From positions 1 through 33,801 of IMG/VR virus record IMGVR_UViG_3300029130_000029: a DNA stretch of 33,801 nt. One strand, given 5' to 3'. Below are positions 1 to 33,801 of this stretch, one piece after another. The first letter of the stretch is position 1. Each line of letters begins with the position of its first letter. Made by a program: the position numbers and the translations under genes. This DNA comes from a virus. The notes under the pieces are model-generated. The model was not told the origin of the DNA, ran no database searches, and worked only from the letters and a program-made list of their open reading frames with translations.

Positions 1-212
1 GTGGCTGCGCTATAGTCGCCGGTGTTGGTGGCTGCGCTATAGTTGCCGGTGTTGGTGGCTGCGCTACAGTCGCCGGTGTTGGTGGCTGCGCTATAGTTGC
101 CGGTGTTGGTGGCTGCGCTACGGTAGCCGGTGTTGGTGGCTGCGCTATAGTCGCCGGTGTTGGTGGCTGCGCTATAGTTGCCGGTGTTGGTGGCTGCGCT
201 ACAGTCGCCGGT
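1..212. repeat. 27-bp tandem repeat array, start-of-window part (8 units)
   Basis: Unit ggtgttggtggctgcgctNNNgtNgcc repeats with exact 27-nt period. Units differ only in a 10-nt core: tatagtcgcc, tatagttgcc, tacagtcgcc or tacggtagcc. The array is in frame with the minus-strand CDS. Confidence 0.95.
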
Positions 213-539
213 CTGATTTTTGCTGCTCTCTGCTTTTTCTTTTATGTACTCAACCGCAGCTTTTACGACGCCTGCAATCCCGATCTCCGCCCGGAGCTTT
301 ATTTTCGTTCCGGCTCGCTTGGTGTCGCAGCTTTCTCTTTCGTCCGACACACCATCGAGGTCAGCCACGAAAAACCGACTGTCGGCCGGGGCGTAATGGG
401 CGAACACATCCAGCGGGTACTCGCAGCCGTGGAATCCTTTTTCGCAGAGTTTGGCTTCTGCTTCTTCATATTCCTTGCCGATTTCGAATTGGAAATCACG
501 GCACTTCATGTCCTTATCTGTGCCTTTGTATACGAGCAC
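1..539 (-). CDS. N-terminal part of a tandem-repeat early protein (DUF7666-like N-domain followed by nonapeptide repeats); continues across the window junction into 33801..33371
   Basis: Absent from the ORF track because it runs off the window edge. The minus frame is open from 539 to 1. GTG at 539-537 follows AAGGAGG (554-548), and there is an in-frame ATG at 509-507. It translates to VLVYKGTDKDMKCRDFQFEIGKEYEEAEAKLCEKGFHGCEYPLDVFAHYAPADSRFFVADLDGVSDERESCDTKRAGTKIKLRAEIGIAGVVKAAVEYIKEKAESSKNQ followed by NTG[D/N/Y][Y/C/R]SAAT repeats. From memory the N-domain resembles an uncharacterised phage family annotated DUF7666. Track ORF 299..499 is in a different frame. Confidence 0.75.
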   Translation of the reverse strand, partial: MLVYKGTDKDMKCRDFQFEIGKEYEEAEAKLCEKGFHGCEYPLDVFAHYAPADSRFFVADLDGVSDERESCDTKRAGTKIKLRAEIGIAGVVKAAVEYIKEKAESSKNQTGDCSAATNTGNYSAATNTGDYSAATNTGYRSAATNTGNYSAATNTGDCSAATNTGNYSAATNTGDYSAA

Positions 540-2825: not shown

Positions 2826-3236
2826 GTGAATTCAGACGAAGAAAGGAATTGGGAAAACTTTTTATTGGAGGTAGCCGCAAAACGGCAGGAGCATGGAATG
2901 ACCCACAAGGATTTGGCCGACAATGCCGGGACGGTTGAGAGGACGATCTCCCGGCTGCTTTCGGAGCCGACCAAGAATCCGAGCCTTTTTCTCGTTGCTT
3001 CCATCTGCCAAGCGCTGCACATATCTCTCGACAAGCATTTTGTTAAGGAAGTCTATAACAAAACAGACAGCCAGAACAGCGAAGAAATGATAGAGGTTCT
3101 GAAAGAGCAGGTGCGCCAGCGCCGGAAGCTGTCCAAAACACTCTTCGCAGTTATTTTTGTCCTGCTGGCGATGATGATTTTATACCTCGTCCTAATCGAT
3201 GCAAATAACCTTAACTACGGTTTGATTCGGGATTAA
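2826..3236 (+). CDS. Membrane-anchored XRE-type HTH protein
   Basis: GTG 2826 follows AGGAGA. It has an HTH motif (MTHKDLADNAGTVERTISRLLSEPTKNPSLFLVASICQALHISLD) and a C-terminal TM helix (TLFAVIFVLLAMMILYLVLI). Confidence 0.7.
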   Translation: MNSDEERNWENFLLEVAAKRQEHGMTHKDLADNAGTVERTISRLLSEPTKNPSLFLVASICQALHISLDKHFVKEVYNKTDSQNSEEMIEVLKEQVRQRRKLSKTLFAVIFVLLAMMILYLVLIDANNLNYGLIRD

Positions 3237-3307: not shown

Positions 3308-3856
3308 ATGGAGGAAATGGAGAAAACAACACCAGAGATCAAGCCAAAGAAGAAAAAAACGATGGTAACAGCAATAATCCTAATTGTTATCATAATTGCA
3401 ATCATCGGAGCGCTTGCCGGCGGAGAAAAGGATAAAGACAAACAGGACAATCAGCAAAATCAGCAGCAACAGCAAGAGGAGCAAAACGCAGAAGTGGATA
3501 TGTCCGTAGTCGCTTCGGCCATAAAAACTGTGCTTGATAAAAATGCGGAGGGCACAGGGATTGAGTACTCTTTAGAATACGATGACACCGGTCTTGTTAT
3601 AGCAGCAAAAGCGTCAGGAGTAGCTGCAGAAGTGGCGCAAGCAAAAGCGGACGGATACGACGAGACATACGAGCCATGGGTAACAATGCGTGAAAGCATG
3701 GTTAAACTGTGCAATTCGGTATCTGATGCTGTTGATACGCTTGGCGCCAAGGATAAATATGTAACAGTCACAGTAGTCAACGATGCCAATGAGGACAACA
3801 CCCTCTTGACGATTATGAACGGCGTGGTTGTATACGATGTAATGGCAGAAAAATAA
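3308..3856 (+). CDS. Type-II membrane protein with Q-rich linker; candidate superinfection-exclusion protein
   Basis: ATG 3308 follows GGAGGAG. It has a Lys-rich N-terminus, a TM helix (MVTAIILIVIIIAIIGALAG), a low-complexity linker (DKDKQDNQQNQQQQQEEQN) and an extracytoplasmic domain of about 120 aa. It lies between the repressor-side genes and the integrase. Confidence 0.65.
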   Translation: MEEMEKTTPEIKPKKKKTMVTAIILIVIIIAIIGALAGGEKDKDKQDNQQNQQQQQEEQNAEVDMSVVASAIKTVLDKNAEGTGIEYSLEYDDTGLVIAAKASGVAAEVAQAKADGYDETYEPWVTMRESMVKLCNSVSDAVDTLGAKDKYVTVTVVNDANEDNTLLTIMNGVVVYDVMAEK

Positions 3857-3906: not shown

Positions 3907-4992
3907 ATGAAAGAAAGGACAAATACGGCAAAGTGGCTTGAGAAGCAGAACCGCTGGCAGATCGCCGTCCAGAAAGATGGCGTAAGAAAAACATTTACAA
4001 GCAGTCGGCCGGGAAGGGAAGGGCAGAGGGAAGCAAACCGAAAAGCAGATGATTGGTTGGCATCAGGCATCTGCGGGACGAAGCTGCACCTATCGGAGCT
4101 GCACGAAAGCTATATGGAGCAGCTTAAAATTCGGACTTCGCAATCGAATTGGCGACCGCAGGAAAGCCGCTGGAAAACATGGATTGACCCAAGGATAGGC
4201 CACCTAAAGGCAGATGCACTTTGCGATGGGATTTTGCAAAAGGTTATCGACTATGCATACAATAACGGGAAATTGTCGAAGAAGTATCTGCAAAGCATCC
4301 GTGCTGACATGGTTTCTTTCTGCAAATATCTGCGGAAAATGAAAGTAACCGGCTTTGCCCCGGAAGACATAACAATTCCAAAGGGAGCCCCCGTTGGCGT
4401 TCGCAACATTTTGCAGCCGGAGGACATTGTAACGCTTTTCTCCGTTGATACGACGATCTACAAGGGTAAATTGGTAAAAGATCCATATATAAATGCTTAT
4501 CGCCTTGAGGTTTTGACCGGACTGCGGCCGGGGGAATTGCGTGGCATCATGCGAAACGATTTCAAACAGGGCAGATTGGAGGTAAGGCGGTCGATAAACG
4601 AGGATAACGAAATCACTACAGGCAAAAATGAAAATGCGATACGCAGCGTTTATTTGGGCGAAATCGCAGAGGCGATTGTAAAAGATCAAGCATCCAAGTC
4701 AAACGGCCTGTATCTATTCCAAATGCCGACAACGGAAACCTATCGGAAGTTTTTCCAAAGATATTGCAAAGCAAACGGAATTCCGAAAACGACACCATAC
4801 GAGCTGCGACACACTTTCGTTTCTCTTGCACAGTCCCTCCCGGAGGGATGGGTAAAGCAATTGGTCGGCCACTCAAAAAGCATGGACACATTCGGGGTTT
4901 ACGGCCACGCTGTATCGGGGATGGATCGGCAAATAACCAGCGCACTCGATGGCGTGTTTATATCAATTCTTGGGCGGCAAGAAAAAAAGTGA
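3907..4992 (+). CDS. int: Tyrosine site-specific integrase
   Basis: ATG follows AGGAGGAG. The C-terminal catalytic region contains LTGLRPGELRGI, YELRHTFVSLA and GHSKSMDTFGVYGH (the R...HxxR...Y signature). It is adjacent to the attP-like site. Confidence 0.95.
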   Translation: MKERTNTAKWLEKQNRWQIAVQKDGVRKTFTSSRPGREGQREANRKADDWLASGICGTKLHLSELHESYMEQLKIRTSQSNWRPQESRWKTWIDPRIGHLKADALCDGILQKVIDYAYNNGKLSKKYLQSIRADMVSFCKYLRKMKVTGFAPEDITIPKGAPVGVRNILQPEDIVTLFSVDTTIYKGKLVKDPYINAYRLEVLTGLRPGELRGIMRNDFKQGRLEVRRSINEDNEITTGKNENAIRSVYLGEIAEAIVKDQASKSNGLYLFQMPTTETYRKFFQRYCKANGIPKTTPYELRHTFVSLAQSLPEGWVKQLVGHSKSMDTFGVYGHAVSGMDRQITSALDGVFISILGRQEKK

Positions 4993-5058: not shown

Positions 5059-5090
5059 TGGTGCGGAAGATGGGACTTGAACCCACACGC
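5059..5090 (-). other. tRNA 3-prime fragment (T-arm, acceptor 3-prime strand, discriminator, CCA) = probable attP core
   Basis: The minus strand reads GCGTGTGGGTTCAAGTCCCATCTTCCGCACCA: T-stem GTGGG/CCCAT, T-loop TTCAAGT, acceptor CTTCCGC, then A and CCA. Sequence further 5-prime does not fold as the rest of a tRNA. Identity is undetermined (the ending resembles Leu). Confidence 0.7.
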
Positions 5091-7113: not shown

Positions 7114-7234
7114 TGGCTGCTTCCTCCTTTTCTTCGGTTTCTACGCCGAGGGTTTGAAGAGCTGCTTTCAGATGTTCCAGCTCTGCTTCCTGCTTTGCTT
7201 TTACTTCTTTGGCTTTTTCTGTGTAATAGCCCAT
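7103..7234 (-). CDS. Small charged coiled-coil peptide (43 aa), below the ORF-track cutoff
   Basis: ATG 7234 overlaps the TAA of the upstream fibre gene (TAATG). Its stop TGA 7105-7103 overlaps the ATG of the next gene. Sequence MGYYTEKAKEVKAKQEAELEHLKAALQTLGVETEEKEEAANAE. Confidence 0.4.
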   Translation of the reverse strand: MGYYTEKAKEVKAKQEAELEHLKAALQTLGVETEEKEEAANAE

Positions 7235-8523
7235 TAGTTCACCCCCATAATGTTAAGAGCATTAAGTGTATCAAGGATATAACTTTCGCCAGAAAGTGTT
7301 TTCCACTGATTTGTAGTTGTATCGTAAATATAAGCATTTGTGAGTTGAGCGATGTTGTTTGAATCTCCGATGTAAGCATTTCGTAAGTAGGCTTCAAATT
7401 CGGATTTTTGACCTTTTACGACTGTGAATGGATTGTCAAAACCAAAGTCTGCTTGTAGAAATAAATGATTTTGTTGCAAAACAGTCGATTGTGTAAATGT
7501 TTCTACTGAAGAAACTCCAGAACCACCAAGAAGATAAAATTTATCACCAACAAATCCACAGCAAGCTGATACTCTACTTGCGTGCAATTCAGACTCAAGC
7601 ACGTCAACGGCCAAGTTATCTAAATTTACACGAATTATCTTTTTTTGATACTGAGTAGAATCTATATTTCCAAAGATATATGCATAGCTACCGATTCTAC
7701 AGCACCTATTTGCTTGGTTCACCATATAAGGTAGTACATTGTTATTCTGAGTATATTCTTGTGTATCGACATCAAATGTCTGTATAGACTTCCGTGGGTC
7801 AAATGAGACTCTTGTTGTGCCTCCAAATACATAAACTTTGCTTCCTACTGCAACACAAGCTGCATTATAGGTTCCTTGAGCTTGTACTGGCATATTCCCA
7901 TGATAAGTAAATTTTTCTGTTGTTACATCGAAAACTGATACAGTAGCAGAGTTTATACTTCCAACATATGAACCAACAAGAAATATTTTATTGCCACTAA
8001 CACAGCCACTTGAAAAATAGTATACTTGCGTACCGGGAAAGGGATAAGAAACATTTCTTAGTGTAGTTTTTTCTCCTGTTTCCAAATCAAACTTATCTAC
8101 ATACTCGGAATCTGCTCCAACATTATGATTAAAAGTATATATGTATTTGCCAACAGTAAATGCGAGTACATAATATTGGTAAACCAGGTCTGAATAAAAA
8201 GTCGTTTTTTCTCCCGTTGTTACATCATATCTATATATATCATTTTGCTGGCTACCTGTATATGGACAAACAGAATAAATATAATTACCGTATGAACACA
8301 TTTGCGGGTAGTCATTTCTAAGCTGAGAAAAACCAACTGTCCAATTCTTTGTCTCCGTGTATTCATTTCCATAATTCAAAACAGGACTGCATTTCACGAA
8401 GTCTGGCTTACTTACCAACGGAACCCATAGTTTGCTTGTATCTACGGGAGGGGTGGAACCAAAGTCAATGTTCAAATCAGCTCCACCACCACCCAATGTA
8501 ATAGGATTTCCTAAAATACTCAT
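7234..8523 (-). CDS. Kelch-like beta-propeller tail fibre / receptor-binding protein, paralogue 2 (intact)
   Basis: About six blades carry the pattern G-x-x-[IVF]-Y-[IVL]-[FLV]-G-G/N followed by [IV]xx[FY]D[VL]xTxxxT. Examples are GSKVYVFGGT...IQTFDVDTQEYT, GDKFYLLGGSG and IYRYDVTTGEKTT. The N-terminal 45 aa or so and the C-terminal 35 aa or so are shared with paralogue 1. The likely start is ATG 8523; the track start 8529 is GTG. Confidence 0.75.
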   Translation of the reverse strand: MSILGNPITLGGGGADLNIDFGSTPPVDTSKLWVPLVSKPDFVKCSPVLNYGNEYTETKNWTVGFSQLRNDYPQMCSYGNYIYSVCPYTGSQQNDIYRYDVTTGEKTTFYSDLVYQYYVLAFTVGKYIYTFNHNVGADSEYVDKFDLETGEKTTLRNVSYPFPGTQVYYFSSGCVSGNKIFLVGSYVGSINSATVSVFDVTTEKFTYHGNMPVQAQGTYNAACVAVGSKVYVFGGTTRVSFDPRKSIQTFDVDTQEYTQNNNVLPYMVNQANRCCRIGSYAYIFGNIDSTQYQKKIIRVNLDNLAVDVLESELHASRVSACCGFVGDKFYLLGGSGVSSVETFTQSTVLQQNHLFLQADFGFDNPFTVVKGQKSEFEAYLRNAYIGDSNNIAQLTNAYIYDTTTNQWKTLSGESYILDTLNALNIMGVN

Positions 8524-8547
8524 ATTCACCCTTTCCGGGGTGATGTA

Positions 8548-9836
8548 TTAGGTCACCCCTAAGATATTCAATGCTGTCTGCATATCGTCTACATAGCTTT
8601 CGCCAGACAGCGACTTCCATTTATTTGTTGCTGTATCAAACAAATATGCTGTTTGTTCTTGAGCCGTTCCATTAGTATCTCCAAGATATACAGCAAGCGG
8701 ACAAGCGTACAAAGAAGTGTCTTTCCCTTTTACGGCTTCCCATACATCATCTGTATAGTCTGTGTTCACCAGCAAGGTTCCTGCTTCAAGTTCAAAGTTG
8801 AACTTCGTATAGACTACGCCAGCGTTGCCAAACCATGATGTATGATTTCTAAAAGAAGAAGCACCAATTACAGCAGTCGTAGGCGGTTGCCCAAGAGTTG
8901 CTGCTTTTGTCTGTGTGTATGTTTCAGGGTGCCACTGTAACAACGAAGAAAAGTCACCCTGCTTAATGTAATAAGAATTGTTGCTAATTAGCCAATGACG
9001 ATACGGTATGGAATTTCCCAGCCATCCAGAAGCAGATGTTGCATTTGTCCACTCTTTTGTGTTCAAATCAAAGATATAAATATTTGCAGTGTCGTTTGTG
9101 GTTGCAAAAACAACGGTGTCTTTTGTGTAATACACTGGATGACCCTCGACTGGACATTGGTAAAAAGTTATCCCATTTGAATCAGTGTCAAAAATTCTTA
9201 CGAAACGCTGTGAACGAACATTATATCCAGATTCGTTACCTGAAGGACTACCGCCAATAATAACAATCTTATCGCCCCACAAAAAAGCATCACAATATTC
9301 CCAGCTTTCGATGTTGTAGTTTACGGGTGCTTTTTGATAGACAACTGTTGCAGTGTTAGTAGATAAATCTACTTTCATTATTTGTTCATGTCGGCTGTAT
9401 TTCTGCGTAGTGTATGACACAGCACCACTAATAATATAAATGCAATTATTGTAATAAACACAAGGAGCAGCACCACCTGGATTTGCTGGAAGTGTTATTT
9501 GCGAAGTAATATTTTCTTGTGACCATGTGCTTTTACTTATTCGATTGACTACTTTTGTCACATATATGTATTCAGATGCAATGCCACCAAACGCATAGAT
9601 ATAATCTTCTGTTTCGCAAAGTGCCATACCATTTACCATGTTCGCTGATGTTACAGGGTGGTGTTCCTGCGTTATACTGCCAACATCGGTACGAAAGTCA
9701 ACCTTTACTGCATCCGGTTTTTTCTCCAAAGGCACCCATAGTTTAGTTGTGTCTGTCGGAGGGGTAGAACCGTAATCAATGTTGAGTTTTACCCCCCCCC
9801 GTTGGTAATAATTGGATTCCCATAGATGATGCTCAT
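8548..9836 (-). CDS. Kelch-like beta-propeller tail fibre / receptor-binding protein, paralogue 1, reading frame interrupted at a G9 homopolymer
   Basis: Track ORF 8548..9735 starts at a GTG that has no RBS. Upstream, ATG 9836 overlaps the stop of 9833..10705 (ATGA) and encodes MSIIYGNPIITNGGG before TAA (9791-9789). One frame over, VKLNIDYGSTPPTDTTKLWVPL runs into the ORF. The joined sequence aligns with the paralogue-2 N-terminus. Kelch-like blades are present (DYIYAFGG, GDKIVIIGGSPSG). Confidence 0.7.
9792..9800. repeat. C9 (G9 on the coding strand) homopolymer at the frame junction of the fibre gene
   Basis: Plus strand reads tttt-a-ccccccccc-gttgg. G10 or G7 would restore a single reading frame. 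Confidence 0.9.
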
Positions 9837-10705: not shown

Positions 10706-11757
10706 GCGTTTGCCCTCCTTTCAAGGATCAAAATTTTGGTAAGATCGGCACGGACAACGCCGAAGGTCATTTTTGTAACATCCTGCGACCTTGCATAGCC
10801 GGTAAGGATAGATTTGTAACTACTGTCGCCATCAATGACCAAAACCTCTGTGCCGATGGCCATTGAGGTATCAAGTACGCCACAGTCGTTTCGGGCAGTC
10901 AGCTCGATCATGTTGTCATACTTTTGCGGGCTTAACGCTTCGTAAGCCTTTTTGTATGCAGCAGATTCAAAATTGATATCCGTTTCCAAAAACTGCGCCG
11001 CAAAAAACACAGGTGTAATTCTGTCCGTGTTGTTTGTGTCGACATTGCCGTTAGGATGTAGATAGTAGGTTATGCGCTGCGTCTCATCGGCCTTGTTGTA
11101 GATGGTTACCTTGTTCAGCTGGCCTGTGCTGTCGCCGATGATGATGTTTTTGTCAACGATAGCCTGTAGGTTTGTTTCTATGACAGCAGTCTCGCTGACC
11201 TTGCCCACCTTAACAGAGATTGTCTTTTTCTGCGGGTCAAAGCTCATGTTGACAGCTACGCCATAAGCCGTCAGCGATTTCGTGATGATTTCGTAAAAGC
11301 TGTGGATGTTGTCCTTTAGATTGAGCGCCCCGGTCGTTTCGGAGGTCGTTTCCACCGTCATACCGGATATGTTTTGCAAAGCATCTCCAGAAGAAACAAA
11401 GTTATCTCGGATGATTGAAGCAATAAAAGGCTCGATCTTTGCAGAGGTCGTGCGATCGAAATATACCTCGGTGTCAAAAAGCGACATAAGAGGCTGCGCC
11501 GAAATCGTTACGCCCGTTTTATCTGTTTCCACATCGTCAACGATTCCCTGATAAGCTACATTCCCGTTTTGGTCTGTAACGCTTATAAAGTCGCCCTTTT
11601 TTGCATCCAGCTTTACAGCCCGGAGAGTAGTTTTTTCTACGGTCAGGTAGTCAAACTGTATCTCCGGGCTTTCAATCGGAGCAAAACTTCGGAATGTGAA
11701 ATCCCTTGCGAATACTTCGCACTTAAACAGAGTATGCAAGTTTCTCCACCTCCACAT
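10702..11757 (-). CDS. Tal-like tail tip / baseplate hub protein (siphovirus Gp37-like, short form)
   Basis: Assigned from its position directly after Dit and its size. The start is uncertain: ATG 11757 lacks an RBS, while TTG 11739 follows GGAGGTGGAG. Confidence 0.55.
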   Translation of the reverse strand: MWRWRNLHTLFKCEVFARDFTFRSFAPIESPEIQFDYLTVEKTTLRAVKLDAKKGDFISVTDQNGNVAYQGIVDDVETDKTGVTISAQPLMSLFDTEVYFDRTTSAKIEPFIASIIRDNFVSSGDALQNISGMTVETTSETTGALNLKDNIHSFYEIITKSLTAYGVAVNMSFDPQKKTISVKVGKVSETAVIETNLQAIVDKNIIIGDSTGQLNKVTIYNKADETQRITYYLHPNGNVDTNNTDRITPVFFAAQFLETDINFESAAYKKAYEALSPQKYDNMIELTARNDCGVLDTSMAIGTEVLVIDGDSSYKSILTGYARSQDVTKMTFGVVRADLTKILILERRANA

Positions 11758-12544
11758 ATGCTACGATATCCGATGTGCCGTCGTGCGAAAATGTCAAAGT
11801 GCTTTCTCCCGGCGGAGCATAGATAAATCTTCCGGTCGAAAAGTCGCTGGACTGGTACAGGTTTTGGATGTATGTCCCGTCGAGCGCATACTCTGCGATC
11901 TCCATTGTTGCAGGGTCAGCATCAACAACGAGTTTGTGTCCGTCAGGGATTGTTGCGGTTACTTTTCCGACCGCTACACGGGTACCGGCCTTGATAAGCG
12001 CCCAAGCAGGATTGACGACCGGGCCGAAGATTTGCAGTTTGCACGGTGATGCCAAATCCCCGTTTCTTATTTTTGCAGTTCCTGTTGCTGTTTCTGCGTA
12101 GTAATAAGGATAAGTGTAACTGTACCTTTTAATTCCTTGGTCTGGCGCTTGACTTTGTGTTACCTTAACAGCTTCGTGCCAAGTCCCGAAGCAGAGGAAT
12201 GTAATCGGTACTGCCAAATAGCCGGATTTCAGTTCCGACTTATCCGCAGACTGCACTTCACACTTGATTTTGTACCATGTGTCCAGCGGGGAATACATCA
12301 GGTAAAGCGGGCCTTTTGTCACGAACGAAATAAACGCCTGATACCGGGAATAGTCGAAGAATATCATTTCGCCTGTCACGGCATACTGGTTAAGGAATTC
12401 ATCCGATACCAGCCATGCGCTTCCGGCTTGGATGGTGGAGTAGGTTTTGCCAAAGCCTAATCCACCTGGCGCATTGAAGTACGCCGTTTTGTCCATCAAA
12501 TCCCATTCGGCGCCGACACCGTTCTTGAGCTTAAATTTTCTCAT
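11723..12544 (-). CDS. Distal tail protein (Dit)
   Basis: Immediately follows the tape measure gene, with its ATG overlapping the TMP stop (TGATG). The size is typical, and the beta-rich sequence resembles siphovirus tail-component family proteins. Confidence 0.7.
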   Translation of the reverse strand: MRKFKLKNGVGAEWDLMDKTAYFNAPGGLGFGKTYSTIQAGSAWLVSDEFLNQYAVTGEMIFFDYSRYQAFISFVTKGPLYLMYSPLDTWYKIKCEVQSADKSELKSGYLAVPITFLCFGTWHEAVKVTQSQAPDQGIKRYSYTYPYYYAETATGTAKIRNGDLASPCKLQIFGPVVNPAWALIKAGTRVAVGKVTATIPDGHKLVVDADPATMEIAEYALDGTYIQNLYQSSDFSTGRFIYAPPGESTLTFSHDGTSDIVAYVEVEKLAYSV

Positions 12545-17265: not shown

Positions 17266-18951
17266 TTAGGAAGCCTTGGTTACATTGACTGTGTAAACAA
17301 CGGTCTCGTTGCCATTCTTGACAGTAACGGTCAGAGGATGGGCAGCGCCATCAGCCAGCCAGGTAACAGAGCCGCCGTTCTTCACATTGGCGTTGTTGTA
17401 GGCAATAGCGACCTGCGCACCGGCAACCTCGGTAGTGGCGTTTACTGCAGCAGTCGCAGCGGAAGCGGTAGCGGTGTAGCTCAGCACATCGCCATCAAAA
17501 GCAGGGCTGAGGGACAGGTTCCCAACGGTCAGAGCGGACAGCTTGGCGTTGTTGGCGGTATCAGCCGCAAAGGTCATGGAGGTGGTTACGGAAGCGCCGT
17601 TAATGTTGATCGCCACAAAAGCGCCGGGGATAACGGGCATACCGTCAGCACGCTCTTTGCCGCGGAATACGGTGTTGTCCTGAATGAACTGAACCTCGCG
17701 GGATGCTTCGATGGTCATGCCGGAGCGCTGCGCCCACAGGTACAGGTCGCCATAGCCGCCAACGATGTCGCCATCGGGGATAAATTCGAGGATTTCCACA
17801 TCACCGCCGATGATGGGCATGGTCATACCGTCAAAGGTGACATACCGGCCCAAAGCGGTAGCAAGGATTGCCTTGGACTGCAGAGTAGCCAGGGTCTTGC
17901 TATTCATAGCCCAGAAGCGCTCGCCGCGGGAATAGCGGGTGAAGGTGTTACCAGCAGCAACAGCCAGCGCAGCCCAGAAAGTCTCGCCGGTGGAAGCGGT
18001 GGGAATGGTGATGATGTTGGAGGTGTGCAGGTCAACCCAAGCAGGAGCATTGGCCGGGTAATCGCTGGGTTTGCTCTCCTGCGCCAGACGCGTCACAATA
18101 CCGAGAGGCATCTTCTGACCAGCGCCCTTGCCGTACAGGATGGCCTTATCCTTGGCAAGGCCGATAGCCTCGGACAGCATCTCGACAATCCAGGAGGCGA
18201 GGTTTACATCGTTATCCTCCAGCAGGGAATTACAAACAGGAACATAACCGGCAACCTTGAAGCCGTCAAGAGTGATCTGGTTAAAGCTGAAGGTCAGCTC
18301 ATTGATGGCACCGCACATTTCAGTCCAAACGGCCTCGGGGACAGTACCGGCAATGGTCTGACGGGCTTCGCCATTGACATTGCGGATGCGGACCCGACGC
18401 ATCAGTTTGGAGTAGCGATACATATTCTCGGCAATGAGGTCGAGGAATACAACAGGGATGGTCAGCTCACCACCGGTGATATCTCTCTTGCTGCGGGCAG
18501 CGTTACGAAGCTCCGCAAAGAAGGTCTGCACATCGGGCTGGGCTACGATAGCGTCACGCTGCTCTTTGGGAAGAGCGTCAAAGGCGCGCACATTCATGGG
18601 GAGGGAGCGAATGTTGATGGTATTCATGGTAAAATCATTCCTTTCGTCTTTCTTTTCTGCTTTGGGTTCAGCCTTGGGAGGATCCTTTTCGGCATTTTCC
18701 AAATCTTCCTCAAGGCCCTTGATTTCTGCGGACAGTTTTTCTTTTTCGGCGTTGTGGGCATCCTGTTCCTCGGTAAATTTGTTCATGGCGTCCTCAACAG
18801 CCTGCTGCTCCTCATCGGTGGTAGCTTCGCCGATTGCTTTTTCGATTTCAGCGGAGCGTGTTGCAAATTCTGCGTCTTTAGCTACCAGCGCCTCAAAAGC
18901 TGCTCTTTTCAGTTCCAGCTTTTTGGCAATCATAATGGATTTCAGTGCCAT
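17266..18951 (-). CDS. Major capsid protein, HK97 fold, with N-terminal coiled-coil delta region and C-terminal cadherin-like/Ig-like domain
   Basis: The core resembles HK97-family MCPs (...ELTIPVVFLDLIAENMYRYSKLMRRVRIRNVNGEARQTIAG...). The N-terminal 110 aa or so is charged coiled coil. The last 92 aa or so (KLSALTVGNLSLSPAFDGDVLSYTA...VVYTVNVTKAS, nt 17269-17544) match the cadherin-like beta-sandwich pattern. Confidence 0.9.
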   Translation of the reverse strand: MALKSIMIAKKLELKRAAFEALVAKDAEFATRSAEIEKAIGEATTDEEQQAVEDAMNKFTEEQDAHNAEKEKLSAEIKGLEEDLENAEKDPPKAEPKAEKKDERNDFTMNTINIRSLPMNVRAFDALPKEQRDAIVAQPDVQTFFAELRNAARSKRDITGGELTIPVVFLDLIAENMYRYSKLMRRVRIRNVNGEARQTIAGTVPEAVWTEMCGAINELTFSFNQITLDGFKVAGYVPVCNSLLEDNDVNLASWIVEMLSEAIGLAKDKAILYGKGAGQKMPLGIVTRLAQESKPSDYPANAPAWVDLHTSNIITIPTASTGETFWAALAVAAGNTFTRYSRGERFWAMNSKTLATLQSKAILATALGRYVTFDGMTMPIIGGDVEILEFIPDGDIVGGYGDLYLWAQRSGMTIEASREVQFIQDNTVFRGKERADGMPVIPGAFVAININGASVTTSMTFAADTANNAKLSALTVGNLSLSPAFDGDVLSYTATASAATAAVNATTEVAGAQVAIAYNNANVKNGGSVTWLADGAAHPLTVTVKNGNETVVYTVNVTKAS

Positions 18952-29966: not shown

Positions 29967-30547
29967 TTCGCATTCTCCTCCATCGTCCGCTGCGCCAGCT
30001 CTATGTCATAGCTGGGCAGCTGCTTTACCTCGGCCATACCGGCCAGCTTTTCCCGGATATCCGCAGGCAGGGCTTGCATTTTGCGCTCACTCTCCTGCCT
30101 TGCCCGGTAGCTGCGCATAAAGTTGGACTGCACCACGCTCTGCACTGTCCCGGTGTCCATGCTGGCCCATTCCCGCAGCTGGGATGGGTGTCCTACCAAC
30201 CGTTGTAGGTTCTCCGGCAGGGCTGCAAACTCTTTCTCGCTGTTGTAGCCGCTGTTCCGCAGGGCCTTTGCAATCAGCGCCCATGCTTCCCCCTCGGAGA
30301 GTTCCGCCGGTCTGTTGATCTCACCAATAGCGGCTATGATAGCCCCAATGTGTGGAGGGAAGCCCTTGCGGTCGCTGGCAATGTGGGACTTAACCGCCGC
30401 TGCCACAAGGTTAGCCGGGTAGTCTGCCAGCATCTCCGCCCACAGATTTACCACCGCTTCGGCATCCTGCCGCTTCATGTCCCGGTAATAACCGGGGTAT
30501 GCAGCCTTCAAAATCGACATGATTGCAAGTGTTTCAGATCGAGTCAT
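29963..30547 (-). CDS. Replicative helicase loader/inhibitor (SPP1 G39P-like)
   Basis: ILKAAYPGYYRDMKRQDAEAVVNLWAEMLADYPANLVAAAVKSHIASDRKGFPPHIGAII resembles the G39P loader family. It follows the replisome organizer gene. Confidence 0.6.
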   Translation of the reverse strand: MTRSETLAIMSILKAAYPGYYRDMKRQDAEAVVNLWAEMLADYPANLVAAAVKSHIASDRKGFPPHIGAIIAAIGEINRPAELSEGEAWALIAKALRNSGYNSEKEFAALPENLQRLVGHPSQLREWASMDTGTVQSVVQSNFMRSYRARQESERKMQALPADIREKLAGMAEVKQLPSYDIELAQRTMEENAK

Positions 30548-31295
30548 GCTCTCCCTCCTCCCTCAACATCTGCAGGAACACATTGTCGGTTCCGTCCTGT
30601 GCCAGCTCGTCCTCCCACCTGCGCTGGTTCAGCCATGTCGCAGGGTTTGGTATGTACTGGCCGTTATTCTCCCGCCATTGGCGGCTCTGCTTCTGTGCAT
30701 TCACAGCGGCTATCATGCGGTCAAAGGTCTGCTTGTCCGGCTTGATGCGCTCAAAAGCCTTTTCCGCTGCGCCTTTGCCGACTTTCTTGGGATATTGCGC
30801 CCAAAATTCGGCAAACCGGCCCCCTTGGGGGGCATGGGGGGTACTTGGATTCGGATTCGGATTCGGATTCGGATTCGGATTGGATTCAGGCCGCAGCTCG
30901 CCGCAATCCGCCGCAACTTGCGGCAACTCGCCGCAGATTTCCGCAGACGGTGTAGAGCCGCTGCTTTTGGGCGGGTCGGGATATTTGGGTTTGCATTCTC
31001 GTATCCTTTGATGTTCGGCCCAAGTCGGGAACCAAAAGTAGGGCTTCCCGTCCACCTCGTAGAGGGAAACGCAGCCTTTGGCCGCCAAACCGTGGAGCGC
31101 ATCGTTGATATCTTTTGCAGTAACCCGTTCCCGAAGCGGGAATGCGTTGCCTTTGATGATTGCAGGTCGGGCATCTCCTCGTCCTGCATCGTCTACCGAA
31201 ACAATAAGACTTACCCAAAGCCGAAACTCGAAATCCGTTAAGGATGCTATCTTGTCGCTTGTGCGGAAGCTATCCTTTATCAATCTATTCGGCAT
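30534..31295 (-). CDS. Replication initiation / replisome organizer protein
   Basis: The N-terminal winged-helix-like region and the C-terminal FAEFWAQYPKKVGKGAAEKAF...IPNPATWLNQRRWEDE motif are common in phage replication organizers. They are joined by an (NP)6 linker. Confidence 0.65.
   Translation of the reverse strand: MPNRLIKDSFRTSDKIASLTDFEFRLWVSLIVSVDDAGRGDARPAIIKGNAFPLRERVTAKDINDALHGLAAKGCVSLYEVDGKPYFWFPTWAEHQRIRECKPKYPDPPKSSGSTPSAEICGELPQVAADCGELRPESNPNPNPNPNPNPSTPHAPQGGRFAEFWAQYPKKVGKGAAEKAFERIKPDKQTFDRMIAAVNAQKQSRQWRENNGQYIPNPATWLNQRRWEDELAQDGTDNVFLQMLREEGEHDSI
30846..30884. repeat. Hexanucleotide microsatellite (CGGATT)5 plus degenerate units, encoding (NP)6
   Basis: Plus strand reads tggatt cggatt cggatt cggatt cggatt cggatt gga. 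It is in frame within the replisome organizer gene (ESNPNPNPNPNPNPS). Confidence 0.9.
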
Positions 31296-33158: not shown

Positions 33159-33374
33159 TTAATATCTGTCTGGTTCTTCATCAAAGTACCTGTTAGCATC
33201 CGCATCGCTGGCGTCAAAACGCTTAACACAGTTTTCGCATCCAATGACCATTCCGTCCTTAATGTAAATTGTCTCGTTGATCTCGCAGCCGCACTCCGGG
33301 CAGATGTGCGGCTTATCATCGTAGTTATCCACCCAGCTCGGGATGGGCCTATCCGGGATATCGTATGGGTTCAT
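33159..33374 (-). CDS. Small zinc-ribbon protein (71 aa)
   Basis: Contains CPECGC...CENC. Its ATG overlaps the stop of the repeat-protein gene (ATGA). Confidence 0.6.
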   Translation of the reverse strand: MNPYDIPDRPIPSWVDNYDDKPHICPECGCEINETIYIKDGMVIGCENCVKRFDASDADANRYFDEEPDRY

Positions 33375-33801
33375 GCTTCCACGACCTCCCCATTTTCCAG
33401 TTTGTAAAATACCCCGGGTTTTATGGTCTCACCATCTACCTTTACAGCTCGCACCTCTTTAATGGGGAAAGTATCACCGTTCCAGCCACCCCTATCGGTT
33501 AGGACGAGCCAGCATCCAAGGGCGCCGGATGCATTACTATCAACTCCGGTGACGATTGCAATAGACTCCTTTCCATCAACGGTGGCTGCGCTACGGTAGC
33601 CGGTGTTGGTGGCTGCGCTATAGTCGCCGGTGTTGGTGGCTGCGCTACAGTCGCCGGTGTTGGTGGCTGCGCTATAGTTGCCGGTGTTGGTGGCTGCGCT
33701 ACGGTAGCCGGTGTTGGTGGCTGCGCTATAGTCGCCGGTGTTGGTGGCTGCGCTATAGTTGCCGGTGTTGGTGGCTGCGCTACAGTCGCCGGTGTTGGTG
33801 G
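33371..33801 (-). CDS. C-terminal part of the tandem-repeat early protein (continues from 539..1 across the junction)
   Basis: Open to the window edge, so absent from the ORF track. It is in the same frame as the repeats and ends ...SAATVDGKESIAIVTGVDSNASGALGCWLVLTDRGGWNGDTFPIKEVRAVKVDGETIKPGVFYKLENGEVVEA-TGA (33373-33371). With the 85-nt overlap collapsed, the joined CDS is 885 nt (294 aa), an exact multiple of 3. Confidence 0.75.
   Translation of the reverse strand, partial: TNTGDCSAATNTGNYSAATNTGDYSAATNTGYRSAATNTGNYSAATNTGDCSAATNTGDYSAATNTGYRSAATVDGKESIAIVTGVDSNASGALGCWLVLTDRGGWNGDTFPIKEVRAVKVDGETIKPGVFYKLENGEVVEA
33581..33801. repeat. 27-bp tandem repeat array, end-of-window part (8 units)
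   Basis: Same unit as nt 1-212. The last three units plus 11 nt (33717-33801) equal nt 1-85 exactly. Confidence 0.95.

Follow-up and report, generated by a model that had tools for sequence, protein, structure and literature searches.

The window analysed here is the whole 33,801-nucleotide stretch of IMG/VR virus record IMGVR_UViG_3300029130_000029; it represents a temperate siphovirus-type phage of 33.7 kb in its circular form. On its minus strand the window carries a gene of the early operon, referred to below as the DUF7666 gene, whose product joins an N-terminal DUF7666 domain to a tandem array of nonapeptides, xxSAATNTG, that differ from one another at two adjacent residues. Judged from the sequences compared, the hypervariability of this dipeptide and its restricted alphabet are family-wide, beyond what a first-pass annotation of the same DNA had seen in a single array. 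A family-wide repeat-variable dipeptide on a nonapeptide solenoid, with the evolutionary signature set out below, appears to be undescribed in the searchable literature. We regard the anatomy of the protein and its evolutionary mode as established. The array is probably a recognition surface, to judge by its pattern of variation, and a role in counter-defence or host takeover is plausible; the composite reading, a recognition solenoid under diversifying selection and concerted evolution that acts early in infection and possibly in counter-defence, we hold at somewhat better than an even chance.

Hypervariable dipeptides in homogenised arrays

Units were compared at the DNA level in 89 arrays (877 units) and at the residue level in 266 arrays (3,834 units). 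The SAATNTG backbone is conserved even where overall identity has fallen to 45%; the two residues that follow the glycine are not. Within the 89 arrays, nucleotide diversity at the six positions of the dipeptide is 0.57, 0.07, 0.03, 0.42, 0.23 and 0.24, against 0.02–0.08 at the third codon positions of the backbone. The first codon takes the form NAC (GAC 355, AAC 248, TAC 188 and CAC 8 of the 877 units), so that its synonymous third base, at 0.03, stands beside a first base at 0.57. The second takes the form YRN and comprises TGT, CGT, TGG, TAT, TGC, CGG, CAG and others, with CAT found 11 times among the same units. At the residue level, position 1 is D, N or Y in 95% of units and position 2 is R, W, C, Q or Y in 95%, and the 15 combinations of these residues account for approximately 90% of the 3,834 units. 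The identity of the amino acid therefore appears to be selected, because histidine is nearly absent though one transition away at both positions. A simple local mutation hotspot is insufficient as an explanation because the third base of codon 1 and the synonymous CpG sites of the backbone (0.02) are both quiet, and the same quiet CpG sites led us to reject CpG deamination as the cause.

The arrays are homogenised at the same time. Synonymous diversity is lowest within arrays (0.05), higher when the arrays of related phages are compared (0.10) and highest in the flanking domains (0.21). Such a gradient is the pattern expected from concerted evolution, which had been suggested for the window's array on the strength of its near-identical units. 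Flanks that are 95% identical can be paired with unrelated arrays, and identical arrays occur in just 3 of 127 allele pairs whose flanks are 100% identical, a count from a sample biased towards differences, since the pairs were drawn from the representatives of 90%-identity clusters. Small steps between alleles are seen as single transitions in codon 2 (DW to DR, NQ to NR, NC to NR) and as in-frame losses of units; larger ones are block duplications, such as the 135-bp unit of the window, a run of 28 YR units at locus L054 and a four-fold block at locus L062. These data fit ordinary point mutation combined with unequal recombination or slippage within the array, with selection as the probable force keeping units different.

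Confinement of the variation to 4 of 27 nucleotides might instead recall programmed hypermutation, by a diversity-generating retroelement (DGR) or some other targeted mutator, but we consider this very unlikely. A copy of the unit outside the array is absent from the window, and no reverse transcriptase was found among its 10 largest unassigned open reading frames (ORFs) or in the neighbourhood of the prophage L001 described below. In codon 1 the first base alone varies and the second is fixed, which departs from the NNC expected of adenine mutagenesis; codon 2 is YRN and not the product of an AAY-to-NNY change; and histidine is depleted. A DGR was rejected on these grounds, there being no template repeat, no reverse transcriptase among the ORFs scanned, and the wrong codon pattern.

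The family is represented by at least 8,000 homolog clusters at 90% identity, each of two word-indexed searches having returned at least 8,000 scored candidates, all under the E-value limit, and by at least 3,386 clusters at 50% identity in a filter-free search with the N-domain (E up to 1e-3). Temperate phages that infect Firmicutes, Bacteroidota and Proteobacteria carry its members in their early operon, and among the hosts are Erysipelotrichales (Absicoccus, 80% identity), Clostridia, Paenibacillus, Bacteroidales, Salmonella, Pseudomonas, Vibrio and Acinetobacter. In Salmonella enterica there are 67 distinct alleles among the 120 best profile matches, mostly of 17 units. Homolog lengths move in steps of 9 residues from 239 to 348, which agrees with the expectation, raised for the window alone, that copy number varies and every change stays in frame; the window has 13 units and its prophage relative eight. 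Other DUF7666 subfamilies are built on 8- or 9-residue backbones (for example xxSALTGG, xxGAATAG, xxGAASATG, xxSANSATG, xxAQIGSSG), all of constant design: a glycine, one or two variable residues of which the first is often D, N or Y, and then small residues. In Vibrio phage 1.185.O (MG592551.1) a homologous array is annotated as 'CRISPR_spacer_1-4', a label that looks like a misannotated coding tandem repeat.

The tolerance of other subfamilies for quite different backbones, and the wide range of copy number (about 3 to 41 units per array), would suit a structural rod or spacer that has no specific ligand and whose arc positions vary neutrally because they are unconstrained. Neutral sites, however, should equal the synonymous diversity of 0.02–0.08, not surpass it 5- to 20-fold, and the alphabet is narrow, lacking His, Gly, Ala, Val and Glu, each of which is one mutation away. 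We therefore rate a neutral spacer as quite improbable.

The gene across the circular junction

The DUF7666 gene starts at GTG 539–537 on the minus strand, preceded by the ribosome-binding site AAGGAGG at 554–548; its frame exits at nt 1, is picked up again at 33801 and closes at a TGA at 33373–33371. All of this can be read from the sequence and is as the first-pass annotation had described it. The ends of the window share exact overlaps of 4 and 85 bp. Plain end-to-end concatenation, in which the frame stops after 186 residues, was rejected as a gene model on account of its broken frame. Removal of the 85-bp overlap (1–85 and 33717–33801, a feature of neither strand), which marks both the circular junction and the assembly break and lies within the array, yields a protein of 294 residues with 13 units, in the order DC NY DY YR NY / DC NY DY YR NY / DC DY YR; this reproduces exactly the order that had been proposed. 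The alternative, removing 4 bp only, gives 16 units and 321 residues. On the minus strand the 5' half-array (1–206) holds seven complete units (DC NY DY YR NY DC NY) and 17 nt of a DY unit, and the 3' half-array (33572–33801) runs ...DC NY DY YR NY DC DY YR, its final unit ending in VDG; Tandem Repeats Finder (TRF) places the two halves at 1–212 and 33581–33801, with a period of 27. The 21-mer of the backbone, AGCGCAGCCACCAACACCGGC, is perfect in 14 of 14 complete copies and has no copy elsewhere in the window (0.01 chance matches expected), and the variable slot is occupied by four hexamers only, GACTGT, AACTAT, GACTAT and TACCGT, so that the repeat DNA is indeed uniform save for the two codons.

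Continuity across the junction is decided by L001, a 55.7-kb contig in which the phage is integrated beside host genes. To either side of the gene it matches the window at 99.9% identity, over more than 11 kb, and its own copy of the gene is uninterrupted, encoding a protein of 249 residues (P0004) that equals the window protein minus five units, that is, with eight units. The sole structural difference between the two sequences is one 135-bp block. Because this prophage carries the gene in one piece, the halves in the window belong together as a single gene and the window represents the phage in circular form. The earlier claim that the gene spans a circular junction thus has three supports, namely the 85-bp overlap, the restored frame and the prophage copy. 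The junction is real, but how many units there are is left uncertain: L001 was assembled at k=119, and because the exactly repeated stretch is longer than this, neither 8 nor 13 units can be trusted.

Arrays of this kind do break assemblies, as had been supposed from the position of the contig ends in the window. Of 80 related IMG/VR loci, 32 have the gene at the end of a contig, and in two contigs (L063/L075 and L012/L019) its halves occupy both ends, as in the window; near-identical DNA was not found in the GenBank phage collection. That the contig ends fall within the repeat, that the 85-bp overlap falls short of the 135-bp higher-order unit and that the unit number is unlike that of L001 could each be taken to mean an assembly artefact, in which unrelated partial genes at contig ends were mistaken for one or the array is chimeric. 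This is extremely unlikely, for the prophage copy is contiguous, the full-length architecture is shared by PHROG 4433 and thousands of homologs, and such genes are present in complete bacterial chromosomes. As to contiguity an artefact is largely refuted; unit number and order stay uncertain. Many database homologs (P0247, P0259, P0266, P0269, P0315 and others) show an out-of-frame reading within the array, for example as RVAQHPPPA repeats, which reflects either truly inactivated copies or frameshifts introduced into the repeats by sequencing or assembly.

Protein architecture, predicted fold and similar proteins

The protein is laid out as a DUF7666 N-domain, 13 xxSAATNTG units, three degenerate cap units and a small C-domain. 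The N-terminal domain with its linker (residues 1–111; 207–539, minus strand) matches Pfam PF24703 over residues 1–93 and profile positions 1–94 of 95 (E=1.4e-28; 99.6 bits against a cut-off of 27), which bears out the first-pass suggestion of DUF7666. The cap units KESIAIVTG, VDSNASGAL and GCWLVLTDR, the beta domain of some 40 residues at the C-terminus and the TGA occupy 33371–33571 on the minus strand, as delimited by a 16-sequence alignment (A2) and by the AlphaFold model. Nearly the whole protein (residues 3–293) aligns with profile positions 15–309 of 312 in PHROG 4433 (E=8.8e-94), a family without recorded function. The N-terminus, MLVYKGTDKDMKCRDF..., has by eye no hydrophobic stretch resembling a signal peptide, and the protein is acidic, with an isoelectric point (pI) of 4.8, and of 4.05 for the array. 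Residues C13, C32, H37 and C39 are invariant in A2; in a 57-sequence alignment (A3) C13, H37 and C39 are again invariant and C32 is conserved in at least 90%. From this conservation, the four may form a CCHC metal site.

Structure prediction with AlphaFold needed the diverse 57-sequence alignment, 30 close homologs having given a per-residue confidence (pLDDT) of 47. With the diverse set the mean pLDDT was 83 (N-domain 85–94, repeats 67–85, C-domain 89–94), and each unit formed one strand of 4–5 residues, AATNT; because this segment is the strand, G-x-x-S sits in the arcs. The array is accordingly modelled as a thin parallel beta-solenoid, with the variable residues predicted to lie in the G-x-x-S arc between strands. 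Foldseek against the Protein Data Bank (PDB) returned parallel beta-helix folds only, headed by a CAP/CARP domain at a non-significant E=0.29, and the best structural analogues of the array are two-sheet beta-helices with two strands per coil. The solenoid postulated in the first-pass annotation is thus upheld by the model at one strand per unit, but its 'one dipeptide per coil' is uncertain, since two strands per coil, as in the analogues, would mean two dipeptides; the order of units carries no period-2 signal of two ladders per coil. The resemblance to YadA or Hep_Hag repeats that had also been raised was not found: no pentapeptide-repeat, YadA or Hep_Hag model in Pfam matched at E up to 1. 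Searching the PDB by sequence, with single and with profile queries, gave only a low-complexity match to the nonapeptide TPAWNSGSK of the Schizosaccharomyces pombe Spt5 C-terminal region, which we judged to be chance.

With the CAP/CARP domain and with beta-rolls the array shares one short strand per approximately 9 residues and small core residues, although for CAP/CARP the Foldseek match is non-significant (E=0.29 or worse). RTX repeats are also nonapeptides. The RTX beta-roll differs in consensus, the xxSAATNTG units having neither the GGxGxDxUx calcium-binding motif nor a HemolysinCabind match at E≤1.

A close parallel in design is provided by the transcription activator-like (TAL) effectors, or TALEs, which likewise combine repeats that are near-identical at the DNA level with two adjacent hypervariable residues, the repeat-variable diresidues (RVDs), drawn from a small alphabet. 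They too have degenerate terminal repeats as well as conserved N- and C-terminal domains, shuffle their repeats and defeat short-read assembly. Their units, however, are of 33–35 residues and form an alpha-helical superhelix, whereas those described here are of 9 (or 8) residues in a predicted beta-solenoid; and TAL effectors are secreted, DNA-binding proteins in which every repeat specifies a single base, whereas the present protein belongs to a phage early operon and has no known DNA binding. In mode of evolution the parallel lies with fungi. The WD repeats of het-d and het-e show concerted evolution, polymorphism in repeat number and positive diversifying selection at a few positions of each repeat, on a surface for interaction (PMC1805685), and the same process has been described for the ankyrin (ANK) and tetratricopeptide (TPR) repeats of fungal NOD-like receptors (NLRs) (PMC4986451); long reads are reported to be needed to reconstruct the fungal alleles (PMC12222747). 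The phage arrays are similarly homogenised, with a few positions far above synonymous diversity (0.23–0.57 against 0.02–0.08). They differ in fold and in organism and are accompanied by no NACHT or NB-ARC domain, and the case for selection here is made from diversity ratios and not from a codon model.

Two further resemblances concern the ends of the protein. Against viral models, Foldseek with the DUF7666 protein found many DUF7666 proteins, some of them from giant viruses, and also six T4-type RIIB proteins, aligned over approximately 100 columns (E=6e-3 to 8e-2; root-mean-square deviation 2.3–3.7 Å). The last 100 or so residues of T4 RIIB share the motifs YKG and C-x2-G-[FL]-H-x-C with DUF7666, and a hidden Markov model (HMM) built from 138 diverse N-domains meets T4 RIIB on the motif with P of approximately 2e-5. 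In hhalign, DUF7666 and RIIB aligned over 81 colinear columns with a score of 23.5, where none of 21 reversed or shuffled controls exceeded 16.5 (P=0.002), at a probability of just 14%; a Pfam scan of T4 RIIB gave no DUF7666 match, and Pfam records no link between DUF7666 and RIIB. RIIB, which lacks a repeat array, has the domain at its C-terminus, and the DUF7666 protein has it at its N-terminus. Loci at which RIIB shares these motifs and the predicted fold are L103 (2966–3904, T4 rIIB) and L107–L116, where support is weak but consistent. We treat a relationship between the DUF7666 N-domain and the RIIB C-terminal domain as a lead. Since RIIB carries an annotation as protector against early lysis induced by a prophage, the relationship would point to counter-defence if the homology is real.

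The second resemblance is to YdhT of Escherichia coli (b1669), whose 9-residue units, G-xx-ARI-xx-G, are degenerate and whose C-terminal cap is the same. It is linked to the DUF7666 protein by an NCBIfam match at E=4e-10 and by hhalign at 83%, in the C-terminal half alone; the score against the NCBIfam YdhT equivalog model NF007410, at 39.7 bits, is below the cut-off of 300. In YdhT the repeats are diverged rather than homogenised, the N-terminus is another one, and the gene is chromosomal, in the ydhYVWXUT operon. At its locus (L102, 5748–6560) the C-terminal 130–180 residues are a diverged 9-residue solenoid with cap, which links that operon to the phage family.

Early-operon setting and candidate functions

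Among species-representative genomes, the closest relative of the window is an assembly of Absicoccus sp. The lysogeny module, on the plus strand, consists of a CI-like repressor (2826–3236), an ORF at 3308–3856 and an integrase (3907–4992); attP lies near 5088 (approximately 1452 in L001), just past the integrase gene, and the host flank in L001 carries genes for a Peptidase_M42 protein and an acetyltransferase. The early operon is divergent from this module, on the minus strand, and begins with cro-like helix-turn-helix genes (1848–2042 and 1199–1477), followed by two small ORFs, the DUF7666 gene and a zinc-ribbon ORF, beyond which lie genes for a Sak annealase, NinB, SSB, a replication initiator and a G39P-like helicase loader. 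The position claimed for the gene, between the cro-side regulators and the recombination module, is thereby borne out. The ORF directly upstream (554–910, minus; 118 residues) is in the same operon and has no family match, and its TAA stop (556–554) is overlapped by the AAGGAGG. Downstream, the zinc-ribbon ORF (33159–33374, minus; 71 residues, CxxC...CxxC) starts at an ATG that overlaps the DUF7666-gene stop (ATGA, 33371–33374), and because of this overlap the two are probably translationally coupled. The same slot, after the early regulators and before recombination or replication genes, is occupied in three distant phages, namely Salmonella phage ES18, a Paenibacillus prophage and an Anaerovorax prophage; in ES18 the homolog, gp53, is flanked by the N-like gene 24 and by cIII/kil/erf. 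In the Paenibacillus prophage a 61-residue DUF7667 gene (L104, 5767–5952) stands immediately upstream of the homolog; DUF7667 had no match among the neighbouring ORFs of the window.

Elsewhere in the window, the replication-initiator ORF (30534–31295, minus) holds two short tandem arrays at 30847–30935, GGATTC in 7 copies and GCCGCAACTC in 4.6, which by analogy with the lambda ori inside gene O are probably an iteron-type origin. The DUF7666 array itself was considered as an iteron or origin and rejected, its frame being conserved across thousands of homologs and its backbone differing between subfamilies; the likelier iterons are those inside the initiator gene. Downstream of the gene for the distal tail protein, Dit (11723–12544), are two adjacent Kelch-repeat beta-propeller proteins (7234–8529 and 8548–9735, minus), likely receptor-binding or tail-tip proteins, and the major capsid protein (17266–18951, minus; Phage_capsid, E=3.7e-40) ends in a Cadherin-like beta-sandwich domain that may be a capsid decoration domain.

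The setting bears on what the array might recognise. Were it to discriminate between phages, or between prophage and host, through superinfection exclusion or kin recognition, with array differences setting specificity as in het-d and het-e, one would look to the alleles with identical flanks and different arrays that are common within Salmonella enterica, to an evolutionary mode like that of fungal allorecognition repeats (PMC1805685) and to the putative terminator directly after gp53 in ES18. The gene nevertheless belongs to the lytic early operon, where it follows cro-like and antiterminator genes, and not to the lysogeny module, and no defence-family match was found with PADLOC; we think such a discriminating role unlikely.

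Proximity to the recombination and replication module is one of several features that would suit a solenoid reading sequence, in which every dipeptide would stand for one element of a periodic and chemically universal ligand, for instance DNA or RNA in single-stranded form. Two neighbouring variable residues stand in otherwise identical units, their alphabet of approximately 15 letters is small and common to several phyla, and the order of units within arrays looks near-random. D, N, Q, R, Y and W, which are abundant in that alphabet, commonly contact the bases of nucleic acids. Against this, no nucleic-acid-binding domain was detected in Pfam and NCBIfam searches, protein and array alike are acidic, cysteine, at 19% of position 2, would be odd for reading bases, and no candidate target came to light, though no search was aimed at one. 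We regard a ladder specifying a universal ligand as doubtful, and we are equally sceptical of its extension to a programmable code, in which the 15 or so dipeptide 'letters' (D/N/Y with R/W/C/Q/Y) would be matched to a single-stranded nucleic acid or to another solenoid.

The recognition solenoid that we prefer would work as follows. The arcs would form a ladder of exposed residues that serves as a recognition surface; recombination within the array would reshuffle this ladder while diversifying selection kept its units unlike, on the logic of TALE RVDs and fungal NLR repeats. The arrays themselves do change, by gaining or losing units or blocks in frame and through single substitutions in the two variable codons. 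The protein would act early in lytic growth on a component of the host or of a rival phage, and the conserved RIIB-like N-domain would be the constant effector or adaptor.

Several points weigh against this interpretation. The alphabet corresponds to the NAC and YRN codon sets minus histidine, so mutational accessibility shapes part of it, and its sameness across three bacterial phyla is a poor fit to host-specific protein targets. Surface exposure of the dipeptide is something we infer from the secondary-structure string alone, in a repeat region that AlphaFold models with moderate confidence (pLDDT 67–85), and an intertwined oligomeric beta-helix would be compatible with the monomeric model. 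The link to RIIB is weak, given the low hhalign probability and the silence of Pfam. The family itself is known by sequence and prediction alone: its members are named only 'hypothetical' or 'DUF7666' in databases, and the searchable literature yielded nothing relevant on DUF7666/PF24703, SAATNTG repeats, ES18 gp53 or YdhT. PADLOC, which covers anti-phage defence, gave no match at E up to 0.1 for the DUF7666 protein and four neighbouring ORFs, and neither PADLOC nor NCBIfam supplied a functional name for the protein.

Among the uncharacterised families of early genes in temperate phages this is one of the larger, with ES18 gp53 and proteins of many Salmonella, Pseudomonas, Vibrio and gut-Firmicutes prophages among its members. 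Its arrays break short-read phage assemblies and yield false terminal-repeat or 'circular' calls, and they could be used as high-resolution markers for prophage typing. The design, identical rungs bearing two hypervariable residues from a fixed alphabet, with alleles that differ even where prophages are otherwise the same, is the signature of an arms-race recognition module, and it offers a concrete handle on an interaction of early infection and, if the RIIB link is true, possibly on the long-unexplained rII function. If the dipeptides were a code, the solenoid would be a third and structurally unrelated mode of modular recognition, after the alpha-helical TALE and PPR/PUF proteins, widespread in the temperate phages of at least three bacterial phyla, which would rewrite that code by shuffling units.

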